From an uncultured Pseudomonadota bacterium (GTDB lineage Bacteria; UBA10199; CAZHVX01): 42,669 bases of DNA. Of the stretch, positions 13,604-42,149 are shown piece by piece. The position numbers and the translations under genes were made by a program. Location of the stretch: contig CAZHVX010000002.1 of NCBI GenBank assembly GCA_964536295.1, positions 1 through 42,669 on the forward strand, given 5' to 3'. The stretch's first letter is position 1. Every line of letters begins with the position of its first letter. Below the pieces are notes generated by a model that was given only the letters and a program-made list of their open reading frames with translations, ran no database searches and was not told where the DNA came from.

Positions 13604-13732
13604 TTAAGGAACCTCTGAAAAACTCAATATAAGCAACTATCGTGTCATCGCGCTTGCCTCGCCGAAGCCTTGGCGTAGGCGGGAGGCGCGATGACATGCA
13701 AGGTGAAAATCAATTTTTAAGAGGGTCCTTAA
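13604..13732. mobile_element. MITE-like element with 19-bp imperfect TIRs, enclosing a TGTCAT...ATGACA REP with a nested CCTCGCC REP
   Basis: TTAAGGAACCTCTGAAAAA (13604-13622) vs TTTTTAAGAGGGTCCTTAA (13714-13732), 17/19 complementary; inner element 13643-13696. Confidence 0.65.
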
Positions 13733-22939: not shown

Positions 22940-23616
22940 AAATCCTGATACTCGACAACGCAATAGATCATAACATTTACCGACCAGTCGATCACTGGGT
23001 GCCCCATATTGTCTTTCCATTTGATTCCTTTCGGGCATCCAATGGCAAATTACCCAACAGCGTTAATGATTATTCGCACATTATTATTTCAGGTTCCGAA
23101 GCCTCAATAGTAGATGATTGTGACTGGTATAAACCTTTAGAGGAGTTAATTCGTGAAGCCGCAATCAAGGACAAGGTTATTTTGGGAAGTTGTTTTGGAC
23201 ACCAAATGATAGCCCGAGCACTCTTTGGGAAAAAAACAGTAAGGCATGCCAAAGTTCCGGAACACGGCTGGTTTGATATTGAGGTGTTAAAAGATGATCT
23301 TTTGCTGCCTCAACATATAGTTTGTCTAAACCTCCATTTTGATGAAGTCTACAACATACCTTTGGATAAATGTGACATTTTGGCAACAACGTTGAATTGC
23401 AAAATTAGCGCCTTTAAATTAAAAAACAAACCAATCTGGGGAATTCAACCGCATCCGGAAATCGGCATAGAAGAAGGTTTAAAAATAATAAAAGAAATCT
23501 CTAAAAAGGAATCATGGAAACAAAATTTTTATCTCAAGGCCTTAAAAACAACACCCCGCGATTCTGGCTGGATTAAGCATTTAATGGAAGAATTTCAAAA
23601 ATATCAAATTACATAA
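22936..23616 (+). CDS. Class I glutamine amidotransferase-like protein
   Basis: SGS, GSCFGHQ nucleophile elbow, QPHPE. Confidence 0.9.
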   Translation: MKILILDNAIDHNIYRPVDHWVPHIVFPFDSFRASNGKLPNSVNDYSHIIISGSEASIVDDCDWYKPLEELIREAAIKDKVILGSCFGHQMIARALFGKKTVRHAKVPEHGWFDIEVLKDDLLLPQHIVCLNLHFDEVYNIPLDKCDILATTLNCKISAFKLKNKPIWGIQPHPEIGIEEGLKIIKEISKKESWKQNFYLKALKTTPRDSGWIKHLMEEFQKYQIT

Positions 23617-23650
23617 ATAAAAAAACACATTAGGTCGCATCTTTTTTTAT

Positions 23651-23741
23651 TGGCGGAGAGGCAGGGATTCGAACCCTGGGTCCGCATGACACGGACAACG
23701 GTTTTCGAGACCGTCCCTTTCAACCGCTCAGGCACCTCTCC
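23651..23741 (-). tRNA. tRNA-Ser(CGA)
   Basis: GGAGAGG acceptor stem, ACGGT-CT-CGA-AA-ACCGT anticodon arm, long variable arm, GTTCGAATC, encoded CCA. Confidence 0.96.
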
Positions 23742-23825
23742 ATGATGGTTGTTATGCTGGCGCAAAGCGCCAGTCATAACAACCATCATGCCTCGCCGAA
23801 GTTCCGTAGGGAACGTAGGCGGGCA
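23742..23825. repeat. 84-nt two-hairpin 5' leader of tRNA-Ser(CGA), copy 1
   Basis: 73/84 identical to 24076-24159; abuts tRNA +1. Confidence 0.9.
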
Positions 23826-23830
23826 TTATA

Positions 23831-23913
23831 ATATTCTTTTACTAATGATACGGCTTTTGCCTTGTTATTAAATGAAAAATAAGAAATTAATTTAAAATGT
23901 ACACATGATACAT
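23831..23913 (-). pseudogene. Probable internally deleted GIY-YIG nuclease remnant
   Basis: ATG-initiated MYHVYIL followed in another frame by KLISYFSFNNKAKAVSLVKEY; resembles the N- and C-termini of small standalone GIY-YIG proteins. Confidence 0.55.
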
Positions 23914-23923
23914 AAAAAAGATT

Positions 23924-23956
23924 GGTCCGCCTACGCCTAAAGGCTTCGGCGAGACC
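23924..23956. repeat. CCTCGCC/GGCGTAGGCGG-family REP hairpin
   Basis: Reverse strand GGTCTCGCCGAAGCCTTTAGGCGTAGGCGGACC; relatives at 13655, 23790, 24124, 42007 and a variant at ~24170. Confidence 0.85.
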
Positions 23957-23999
23957 TGCCTCTCCGTGAGGAGTTTTTGACTCCTCACGGAGAGGCAGG
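23955..23999. repeat. Perfect 20-bp inverted repeat whose one arm includes the tRNA-Ser(GGA) 3' end
   Basis: CCTGCCTCTCCGTGAGGAGT-TTTTG-ACTCCTCACGGAGAGGCAGG. Confidence 0.9.
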
Positions 24000-24075
24000 G
24001 ATTCGAACCCTGGGTACAGTTGCCCGTACACATGCTTTCCAAGCATGCTCCTTCGGCCAGCTCGGACACCTCTCC
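23988..24075 (-). tRNA. tRNA-Ser(GGA), CCA not encoded
   Basis: GGAGAGG acceptor stem, CATGC-TT-GGA-AA-GCATG anticodon arm, long variable arm, GTTCGAATC. Confidence 0.95.
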
Positions 24076-24159
24076 ATTATGGTTGTTATGCTAGCGCAAG
24101 GCGCTAGTCATTACAAACATAATGCCTCGCCGAAGTTCCAACAGGAACGTAGGCGGGCA
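24076..24159. repeat. 84-nt two-hairpin 5' leader of tRNA-Ser(GGA), copy 2
   Basis: Homologous to 23742-23825 with two compensatory base-pair changes. Confidence 0.9.
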
Positions 24160-24269
24160 AATCAACGACTTCCCCCCATAGCTTTTGGCGAAGGGGGGGA
24201 CTTCAATATATCAAAGATTCGCCTTATTAAACGAAAACTGAACTAAAATCAATAGCTATATTTTAAGCG

Positions 24270-24719
24270 TTATTTTCTCAACGTTTTAAAGAAATTAGAC
24301 AATAGTAGTCCACACTCTTTTTCCAAAACACCTGATACAACCTCGATCTGATGGTTTAAACGCGTATCATTTGATAGATCATACAACGACCCGCAGGCAC
24401 CGGCCTTTGGATCGCGACATCCGTAAACAATTTTTTGAATTCGCGATTGAAGCATCGCCCCCATACACATAATACATGGCTCGCATGTCACGTATATGGT
24501 CACGTTCTCCAGGCGCCAGAAATTATACTTTTGGGCGAGTTCTTTTATGAGTAAGGATTCAGCATGTCCAAAGGGATCCTGTGTGGTTTCGCGAAGATTA
24601 TGTGCACGGGCCACAATCTCGCCATCCACAACGGCAACAGCACCAATCGGAACCTCTTTGATAGCCGCGGCCTTTTTGGCCTCTTCAATCGCTTCTTGCA
24701 TGAAATATTCATGATTCAT
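24270..24719 (-). CDS. tadA: tRNA adenosine(34) deaminase
   Basis: EVPIGA, HNLRE, HAE, WRL, EPCIMC, DPKAGA, LNH; start moved to ATG 24719 because the upstream extension is repeat DNA. Confidence 0.95.
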   Translation of the reverse strand: MNHEYFMQEAIEEAKKAAAIKEVPIGAVAVVDGEIVARAHNLRETTQDPFGHAESLLIKELAQKYNFWRLENVTIYVTCEPCIMCMGAMLQSRIQKIVYGCRDPKAGACGSLYDLSNDTRLNHQIEVVSGVLEKECGLLLSNFFKTLRK

Positions 24720-24768
24720 GTTGGTTGTATATATTGACAGAAACGCTTTATCAACTACAAAACCTATT

Positions 24769-24910
24769 ATGAGGACACGGAGTTTTAAAACGCAGAGCAT
24801 ACTGAGAGCGCTGGGGTCTCTGAGTTTTTTTGTGTCTGTGGTGATATTAAATAAATCCTCAGCGAACACAGAAACCTCAGAATACTCTGCGTTTAACATC
24901 TCTGTGGCCT
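24769..24910. repeat. ~145-bp 9-nt periodic palindromic element, homolog of 8187-8330
   Basis: ATGAGGACACGGAGTTTTAAAACGCAGAG...CTGAGTTTTTT matches the reverse complement of the 8272-8330 arm. Confidence 0.8.
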
Positions 24911-24968
24911 CTAGGGTTCCTCTCAATGTCACTTGATATACAGGTTTGCATCATATATACAGATCATT

Positions 24969-41994: not shown

Positions 41995-42149
41995 TGTCAT
42001 TGCGCTTGCCTCGCCGTAGCCTTGGCGTAGGCGGGAGACCACGAAGGGACGTGGCAATCTCCGCTTAACAAGTGTTTAATGGGGATTACGTCGTCACCTT
42101 GCTTGTCCTGAGCGAACGTCAGTGAGCCGAAGGGTTCCTCGTAATGACA
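41995..42149. repeat. Composite TGTCATTGCG...CGTAATGACA REP with two nested hairpin inserts
   Basis: First 43 nt are 41/43 identical to 13643-13685; second insert CTTGTCCTGAGCGAAC...GCCGAAGG. Confidence 0.8.

Follow-up and report, generated by a model that had tools for sequence, protein, structure and literature searches.

Bacterial intergenic DNA is full of small palindromic repeats. To our knowledge only two kinds of enzyme partner are known for such repeats, the RAYT transposases and, since 2025, the Ssn nucleases. Does a short spacer between two serine tRNA genes of an uncultured Pseudomonadota bacterium point to a further one? The spacer lies on contig C2 of an assembly with 206 contigs (2.05 Mb, 41% G+C). 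A stretch of 42,669 nt (here called the window) was analysed, and groundwater metagenome runs contain it. Here, two copies of a repetitive extragenic palindrome (REP) between tRNA-Ser(gga) and tRNA-Ser(cga) enclose 82 nt that an initial annotation had taken for the scar of a GIY-YIG nuclease gene, one that travels with the REP family and docks at tRNA 3' ends. We find that these 82 nt most probably represent a dead gene copy that once encoded a GIY-YIG nuclease of 79 residues and a single domain, and that there is a clade-specific link between this nuclease and the hairpin that extends across phyla and has its address behind tRNA genes.

The 82 nt between two REPs

The genome has eight PF01541 matches above the cut-off. 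One of them, an intact paralog on contig C17 that sits before tRNA-Pro, has 79 residues and scores 59.2 bits, with the cut-off at 22.6. The protein starts with MYCAYILKS, contains FNLVSYIAFIDRKKA and ends with SGRSFLKKRVF, right after the catalytic domain. It is a single domain, matched by PF01541 and overlapping related families only, and no NCBIfam family scored above its cut-off. Y16, G18, H30 and E62 are invariant in the clade alignment, and the C-terminus carries the signature FE[KR]YLK[ST][GA]SGRAF. The same REP as at the remnant stands before the start codon and after the stop codon of the C17 gene. Neither a promoter-like site nor a Shine-Dalgarno sequence was found before the nuclease gene. 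Upstream of it lies an 'empty' hairpin of the same family as the hairpins of about 20 bp that enclose tRNAs in this genome.

Read in gene order, the 82 nt give MYHVYIL (23893-23913), (F)KLISYFSFNNKAKA... (23843-23896) and GKSRIISKRIL followed by a stop codon (23832-23861), each in another frame. The initial annotation had listed two pieces, and MYHVYILN-stop and ...FKLISYFSFNNKAKAVSLVKEY... are indeed present in two frames, but it had overlooked the third collinear one, GKSRIISKRIL-stop, which lies in the third frame, matches the C-terminus of the clade and has a stop codon that abuts the next REP. The pieces were compared with a clade profile made from the five best relatives by rank to the C17 protein (not to the remnant), none of which comes from this genome. 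On this profile all three are collinear at positions 1-7, 44-61 and 68-76, which in the small GIY-YIG clade are the start, the beta-strand that precedes the last helix and the C-terminus. The middle piece scores 11.4 bits (E 1.1 genome-wide) and ranks 9 of 129,775 six-frame open reading frames (ORFs). Eight ORFs rank higher, seven of which are the GIY-YIG-domain genes of the genome, UvrC included. The window copy lies below the PF01541 cut-off, reaching no more than these 11.4 bits with the clade profile. An ORF on contig C21 also outscores the remnant (12.8 bits). It is an ordinary gene start, and as neither a REP nor a tRNA is nearby, we took it for a chance match.

In a DNA alignment, the REP with the ATG and the 3' part of the window copy map onto the C17 gene with a long gap inside. 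Profile positions 8-43 (about 110 nt) and roughly 56-67 (about 40-50 nt) are lost, and the four invariant catalytic residues all fall within deleted positions. Because two internal deletions and the frameshifts removed the YxG, Arg/His/Asn and Glu parts, we regard the gene as dead. The initial annotation had also proposed that the scar is the autonomous partner of the REPs scattered over the window. With every catalytic residue gone, this is not supported, and the only candidate for that role in the genome is the intact C17 copy.

It is the context of REP, stop codon and tRNA that identifies the remnant; protein similarity is not enough for this. At only two sites of the genome, the intact C17 gene and the remnant, does a GIY-YIG-like start follow a forward REP at a distance of no more than 45 nt, and in either case the stop codon directly adjoins a reverse REP, behind which come a long hairpin and a tRNA. 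Could the three pieces nevertheless be a chance similarity in an AT-rich spacer that never held a nuclease gene? The protein comparisons leave room for this idea. BLASTP gave no alignment between the middle piece and the intact C17 paralog, and the similarity of the remnant by itself is not significant genome-wide (E about 1), the unrelated C21 ORF scoring higher. A broad profile of 28 relatives from other genomes gives the remnant 6.6 bits (rank 23 of the 129,775 ORFs), and the chain of collinear pieces on this profile reaches 7.4 bits (rank 20 of neighbourhoods), which is too weak alone. Chance would, however, have to place start, middle and end pieces in collinear order, put an ATG at the clade's usual distance past a forward REP and let the stop codon abut a reverse one. 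It would also have to set all this behind a host tRNA on the same strand, tRNA-Ser(gga), 73 nt upstream of the remnant start, in a layout that matches C17, the cross-phylum pattern and the closest homolog from another family (L025, see below), which lies between the same two tRNA-Ser genes. We give chance very little credence. The scar proposed initially thus keeps its pieces, collinear on a GIY-YIG clade, and its REP-start...stop-REP frame, shared with C17 and with homologs in three other families, with the reservation that the profile scores are weak. As a pseudogene the window copy is ordinary in itself; its interest lies mainly in being a pointer to a wider system.

The REP family and the nuclease clade across genomes

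In the REP of this locus, the conserved inner loop RWAG/CGWA stands between a GC-rich outer stem and a variable, perfectly paired inner hairpin. In the fold, the conserved 'loop' consists of G.A, W-W and A.G between two helices, so that two purine-purine mismatches flank the W-W pair, and the outer stem has a bulged base. The strict pattern, CGCC-RWAG-N(3-32)-CGWA-GGCGG, is present in 58 copies in the genome, compared to 0 for the backwards control. These copies have 37 different inner sequences; 38 of them have a perfect inner stem of 2 bp or more that closes a loop of 9 nt or fewer, and the W-W pair is kept in 45 of 58. In the window, the motif CTCGCCGAAG-N-GTAGGCGG occurs four times (13658+, 23792+, 23927-, 24126+), with 0.00 in shuffles. 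Most REP copies of the genome contain GTAG. As GAAG replaces it in the CGAAGGCGG variants, GTAG is no invariant tag.

We then compared 93 genomes of the class, including this one, with all 92 others coming from different families. Relatives of the C17 protein are present in 54 of the 93 (this genome counted), and 15 of the 30 loci examined contain a tRNA. The best match, with 55% identity, is found at L025 in another family, between the same two tRNA-Ser genes. This locus begins with a REP-like hairpin, a long leader hairpin, tRNA-Ser(cga) and a 20-bp hairpin that includes the tRNA 3' end and has the design seen in the window with a different inner sequence. It continues with a forward REP and, after 9 nt, an intact gene for 79 residues; then come a tRNA 3' fragment whose T-loop is interrupted by REPs and, 511 nt on, tRNA-Ser(gga). 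This is nearly a part-for-part copy of the window layout. A strict REP lies at most 70 nt from the gene in the four best-ranked loci (L006, L025, L026 and L027, from four families) and in 0 of 26 others. The degenerate signature FE[KR]YLK[ST][GA]SG occurs in one copy in each of seven of the 93 genomes. At least four REPs were counted in four of these seven (58, 15, 13 and 4) and in 8 of the 86 others, a difference that we treat as a trend only, since the class genomes are related and not independent.

A scan across phyla, with one genome per species, returned at least 573 relatives, of which the best 80 were analysed. Relatives occur in Alphaproteobacteria, Bacteroidota, Verrucomicrobiota, Patescibacteria, Dependentiae, Nitrospirota, Acidobacteriota and others, and existing annotation, for example in Rhizobium leguminosarum, calls them only 'GIY-YIG nuclease family protein'. 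In 49 of the best 80 loci a same-strand tRNA, of many identities, ends 69-209 nt upstream of the gene, and none of the 80 has a tRNA downstream only. A strict REP is located within 150 nt in 22 of the 80, mostly forward and upstream. We additionally defined a structural REP as a 4-bp outer stem of any sequence, RWAG, a perfect inner hairpin, CGWA and the complementary outer stem. It is present at most 90 nt upstream of the ATG in 15 of the 80 loci, 12 of which have it ending 8-17 nt before the ATG, and in neither of the controls (0 of 80 reversed strings; 0 of 1312 other 90-nt windows of the same loci). Among the loci the outer stem covaries (CGCC, CTCC, CTTC, CGTC, CGGC, CTGC, CCCC). By either definition, 32 of the 80 have a REP. 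Direct repeats on both sides of the gene, above every control, were found in 14 of 78 loci, and some of them include the last tRNA bases and hairpins. A copy of the tRNA 3' end beyond the gene was considered as a general rule and rejected, occurring in 3 of 49 loci only; an inverted anti-tRNA copy in the spacer likewise reaches the threshold in 3 of 49 and is clear only in L056. Bradyrhizobium sp. 138 contains 54 REPs versus 10 in the control. The expectation of the initial annotation that intact GIY-YIG genes go together with REPs and tRNAs was therefore borne out, as this clade is tied to the REP type and to tRNA 3' ends across phyla.

In the genome under study, 18 of the 58 REPs lie within 300 nt of a tRNA, where about 1% would be expected from the genome fraction. 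The main rival explanation starts from here. REPs and long hairpins would be parts of the tRNA transcription unit (processing stems, insulators or terminators) kept under selection, and the GIY-YIG gene would hitch-hike in a well-transcribed harbour and not act on the REP. This agrees with the 12 of 29 tRNAs of the genome that have a REP within 300 nt, with the perfect 20-bp hairpins that abut many tRNA ends or the leader-trailer pairing that encloses the tRNA, and with the lack of a nuclease gene at most REP-bearing tRNA loci. The leader hairpin of tRNA-Ser(cga), moreover, recurs in three families (window, L013 and L025) with changes on both arms. Yet 40 of the 58 REPs are more than 300 nt away from any tRNA, and those nearby stand in both orientations on both tRNA sides (upstream six reverse and four forward, downstream five forward and three reverse), which is unexpected for an RNA signal with purine-purine mismatches on one strand. 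The place of the REP, 8-17 nt before the nuclease ATG, is fixed even in distant phyla, and no REP was found at the 26 class loci of other GIY-YIG clades, many of which also lie at tRNAs. The idea of tRNA-unit parts is weakened by the mixed orientation, by the many REPs that are not near a tRNA and by the lack of REPs next to other GIY-YIG clades at tRNAs, and we consider it unlikely.

The REP might also owe its mobility to another enzyme, for which the RAYT encoded on contig C155 and four Ssn-like GIY-YIG proteins of the genome come into question, with its nearness to the C17-type gene being secondary. The genome indeed has a typical RAYT (PF01797) as well as four more small GIY-YIG genes flanked by inverted palindromes of their own, and the GTAG in most REPs is the tag of RAYT-type REPs (PMC3733652). 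However, the RAYT has another REP (GTAGGTTGGGTT...) on either side and the Ssn-like genes have TGTCATCCTGA... palindromes, the CGAAGGCGG variants contain GAAG instead of GTAG, and other families and phyla likewise show the REP together with the C17-type clade. Mobilisation by one of these enzymes appears decidedly improbable to us.

Further debris was found at tRNA-Ser(cga) in another family. At L013 (1150-1620, minus strand), by tadA, a 143-nt unit is repeated about 2.5 times in tandem directly upstream of this tRNA. The unit consists of a REP-like palindrome, a leader hairpin related to that of the window and a C-terminal GIY-YIG fragment (19 bits), which looks like independent decay at the same tRNA-Ser(cga). 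The synteny of tadA and tRNA-Ser(gga) is kept in class genomes. At L015 in genome G014, the spacer between tRNA-Ser(gga) and tRNA-Ser(cga) has a 120-codon ORF on the tRNA strand with neither a GIY-YIG match nor a REP.

Layout of the locus and other oddities of the genome

Table 1 Features of the tRNA-Ser locus and dispersed REPs in the window
Feature	Position	Strand	Basis and remarks
tadA-like deaminase ORF	24270-24932	-	ORF list; the unit 23651-24200 is downstream of it on the minus strand
REP variant, C6/G6 outer stem, inner loop ATAG ... CGAA	24172-24199	+	looser shell search
REP copy GCCTCGCC-GAAG-hairpin-CGTA-GGCGGGC, upstream of tRNA-Ser(gga), reverse relative to the tRNAs	24124-24158	+	motif and shell search; -11.6 kcal/mol, z -4.4
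Long leader hairpin, 50 nt, abuts 5' end of tRNA-Ser(gga); two outer-stem mismatches	24075-24124	-	inverted repeat 88%; -16.4 kcal/mol, z -6.3
tRNA-Ser(gga), sole copy of the isoacceptor in the genome, CCA not encoded	23987-24076	-	ARAGORN; Rfam tRNA 52.5 bits
Perfect 20-bp hairpin, 5' arm is the 3' end of tRNA-Ser(gga) ('anti-tRNA' repeat)	23955-23999	-	inverted repeat 100%; -26.7 kcal/mol, z -13.5
REP copy, forward, ends 11-14 nt before the remnant ATG	23925-23955	-	motif, shell search, folding
Putative GIY-YIG pseudogene; of about 240 nt, 82 remain, as three pieces each in its own frame	23832-23913	-	ORFs, DNA alignment, clade profile
REP copy, reverse orientation, starts 1 nt past the remnant stop codon	23790-23824	+	motif, shell search, folding
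Second leader hairpin, abuts 5' end of tRNA-Ser(cga); perfect stem, one bulged A	23741-23790	-	inverted repeat 100%; -26.8 kcal/mol, z -10.7
tRNA-Ser(cga), sole copy in the genome, CCA encoded	23651-23741	-	ARAGORN; Rfam tRNA 57.4 bits
Dispersed REP copy, distant from all tRNAs	13658-13683	+	motif and shell search
Dispersed REP copy, GTAG ... CGTA form	42012-42035	+	strict pattern and looser shell search

The initial annotation had given the order of the parts correctly (Table 1), except that the REP after the tRNA starts with TCTCGCC and not CCTCGCC and stands 11 nt, not 10, before the ATG. As all parts were found, the hairpins beat their shuffles and the REP motif occurs 4 times against 0.00 expected, we regard this observation as confirmed. 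When folded as DNA, every hairpin of 23651-24200 beats the shuffles with z between -3.6 and -13.5; for the REPs of the locus the values are -10.4 to -11.7 kcal/mol and z -3.6 to -4.4. The arms of the 20-bp inverted repeat (23955-23974 and 23980-23999) include the last 12-13 nt of tRNA-Ser(gga). Both tRNAs are identical over the last 28 nt before the CCA of tRNA-Ser(cga), and a direct repeat of 100 nt (87%; 23726-23825 and 24060-24159) spans REP, leader hairpin and tRNA 5' end.

Among the Rfam matches at the locus, the tRNAs alone are above threshold, the remaining rows being sub-threshold and overlapping tRNAs or hairpins. A promoter and terminator scan gave two promoter-like sites, with 1.9 expected, and 0 terminators. 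One of the sites lies before the tRNA unit, at 24260-24289 on the minus strand; we did not count the scan as evidence. A 363-nt contig from groundwater metagenomes (four runs) matches 23655-24017 exactly, and the contigs of these runs show only the form present in the assembly. 'Joints' in metagenome contigs sit at the 28-nt stretch common to both tRNAs, with sides of 23-24 nt, and are therefore read as assembly ambiguity.

GIY-YIG genes are also found at other tRNAs. At C95:1430-1860 (L007), a small one starts 4 nt after a tRNA that is partly N-masked, and a second copy of the T-arm and acceptor end follows the gene, its T-loop split by the palindrome CCTGCCTGCCGGCAGGCAGG. A YhbQ-like GIY-YIG gene lies behind tRNA-Leu(gag) at C13:17990-18830 (L002), a region interrupted by an N run; the 3' half of this tRNA and some 60 nt of trailer are present twice, and a REP variant separates the two copies. 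Eight class loci, namely L035, L039, L041, L046 and L048 (tRNA-Asn), L047 and L052 (tRNA-Met) and L049 (tRNA-Gln), have GIY-YIG genes of other clades whose final codons, stop included, fall within the 5' end of an intact tRNA. Upstream of these genes is a partial copy of the same tRNA, with the D- or T-loop broken by GC-rich palindromes.

The four Ssn-like GIY-YIG genes (L001, L003, L004 and L005, on contigs C116, C157, C99 and C165) stand between inverted TGTCATCCTGA...GGATCC palindromes. Copies of this palindrome that enclose no gene occur nearby, and the search pattern for SRM, the hairpin repeat of Ssn, has no match within 250 nt of the genes. The typical RAYT (C155:349-891, L055) has GTAGGTTGGGTTGAGG-type REPs on both sides, which form the third palindrome family of the genome.

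Many tRNAs on contigs C86, C62, C122, C72, C35, C61, C81 and C45 are bordered by perfect hairpins of some 20 bp. At tRNA-Val (C86), tRNA-Pro(ggg) (C62), tRNA-Leu(cag) (C122) and tRNA-Arg(tct) (C72), the leader pairs with the trailer, which places the tRNA in the loop between them. At C62:1-400 an intact tRNA-Val(gac) with flanking hairpin arms is apparently nested in a second, broken tRNA-Val copy, the D-arm of which is also split by palindromes. A transfer-messenger RNA call by ARAGORN at C122:1563-1948 encloses tRNA-Leu(cag) (1773-1857) and predicts an unusual tag peptide; the call is probably false or disrupted.

A candidate nuclease-palindrome system behind tRNA genes

What, then, would the intact enzyme do? 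Our main explanation, which we consider reasonably probable, is that the window holds a dead nuclease gene in a REP-gene-REP frame at a tRNA and that the cognate intact enzyme acts on the REP. By analogy to the Ssn nucleases, the intact protein would recognise the folded REP in single-stranded DNA and nick at or near it. REPs could then spread by nick-induced repair, template switching or gene conversion, and the whole REP-gene-REP cassette might occasionally be copied to another tRNA 3' flank. Such copying would leave the direct repeats and partial tRNA copies that are seen at some loci. The nuclease gene would probably be expressed from the tRNA promoter. Surplus second copies, such as that of the window, would decay, and the hairpins and the essential tRNAs would stay. 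Both the cleavage of the REP by the nuclease and the mobility of the unit are inferred.

Several observations, besides the poor protein similarity of the remnant, weigh against this explanation. Within the genome, REPs are tied to tRNAs (18 of 58) more than to GIY-YIG genes (one intact and one remnant). Genome G016 has 11 REPs without a signature gene, and two Rhizobium genomes that have the gene and its own REP show REP counts at the level of the control (7 vs 9 and 5 vs 6). In 48 of the best 80 loci across phyla neither REP definition applies, and copies of the tRNA 3' end beyond the gene are as rare as given above. At 14 tRNA-Ser/tadA loci of other families we found no strict REP (0 of 14) and, in 13 of the 14, no GIY-YIG match. 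The GIY-YIG debris at L013 fits an old vertical residence as well as a repeated invasion. Neither the class genomes of other families nor the contigs of four metagenome runs contained filled and empty alleles. With no such alleles seen and the L013 debris speaking for long residence, the claim that the unit is mobile is not supported.

Among the known systems, the closest parallel is offered by Ssn. SsnA of Neisseria meningitidis has 94 residues, and ssn genes lie between copies of a hairpin repeat (NTS/SRM) that also occurs elsewhere, tens to hundreds of times (PMC11893778). The experimental work described there shows that Ssn nucleases recognise their own folded hairpins in single-stranded DNA and nick nearby (Chenal et al. 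2025). Both systems share a single-domain GIY-YIG protein of less than 100 residues, a gene between hairpin repeats, one gene versus many repeats and the lack of a transposase; with 79 residues, the C17 protein falls within the size range used for Ssn (single-domain GIY-YIG of at most 150 residues). However, the hairpin described here differs from SRM. The published SRM search sequence (PMC11893778) has no match in 23600-24260 or up to 250 nt from the C17 gene, and the SRM pattern matches 64 times genome-wide as compared to 5-6 times in shuffles. The protein clade is distinct as well, with about 34% identity over 64 residues between the C17 protein and the Ssn-like copy of the genome. Anchoring at tRNA 3' ends also sets the two apart, the word 'tRNA' occurring 0 times in the main text of PMC11893778.

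With REP/RAYT (REPINs; Nunvar 2010, Bertels and Rainey 2011), the system shares short imperfect palindromes with conserved unpaired bases, many copies versus a single-copy enzyme gene flanked by inverted REPs, and an apparently long vertical residence. In contrast, the enzyme here is of the GIY-YIG type and not a Y1 (HUH) transposase, and there is a strong preference for tRNA flanks. Of the two PF01797 matches in the genome, the RAYT on C155 has a REP of another kind at its flanks and the gene on C40 has other repeats.

A GIY-YIG gene lodged among tRNA genes is also known from phage T4, where the free-standing homing endonuclease SegB lies in the tRNA cluster (PMC2330249, PMC13096335). Some of our loci have duplicated tRNA or flank segments, as break-induced copying would give. 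Enzymes of the SegB type carry a DNA-binding domain, whereas the protein described here is a bare 79-residue catalytic domain encoded on a bacterial chromosome with a conserved hairpin beside the gene. The nearest solved structures by sequence, with weak similarity, are 1zg2 (UPF0213 protein BH0048, E 1.1e-4) and SLX1 structure-specific endonucleases (E 0.04). Unlike these, the system has no partner subunit or RING domain, and its REP/tRNA setting is not known for UPF0213 or SLX1.

Compared in this way, the system appears to function like Ssn/SRM and REP/RAYT and to sit like the phage SegB. As it lacks the SRM pattern, a REP-flanked Y1 transposase and a DNA-binding domain, it differs from Ssn, RAYT and Seg in these features. 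In our literature search, which covered the Ssn paper in its main text, we came across no account of small, palindrome-associated GIY-YIG genes located behind tRNA genes of bacteria. The system to which the locus points is real, widespread and, as far as we found, undescribed; its REP may overlap with a catalogued GTAG/CGTC family (e.g. GTAG-14 of Bradyrhizobium). Going further, and more tentatively than for the window itself, we propose that the 79-residue GIY-YIG clade, phylum-spanning and usually single-copy, may be the cognate enzyme of its own mismatch-bearing REP class. Anchored behind tRNAs and co-transcribed with them, it would be the source of hairpins and of partly duplicated tRNAs in the surroundings of the tRNA genes. 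It would then be the third nuclease-palindrome system, after REP/RAYT and Ssn/SRM, and the first aimed at tRNA flanks.

The locus thus leads to a further candidate pair, consisting of a distinct bare GIY-YIG domain and a distinct hairpin that conserves its mismatches, with a fixed address behind tRNAs. The clade is found in at least 573 species genomes, including cultured, harmless Rhizobium and Bradyrhizobium, and is open to direct testing. If the nuclease acts on the hairpin, the crowding of palindromes and tRNA fragments at the tRNA flanks of such genomes would be accounted for, the single-strand DNA nucleases would gain a new hairpin specificity, and annotators would have a rule for the many 'GIY-YIG nuclease family protein' genes beside tRNAs.

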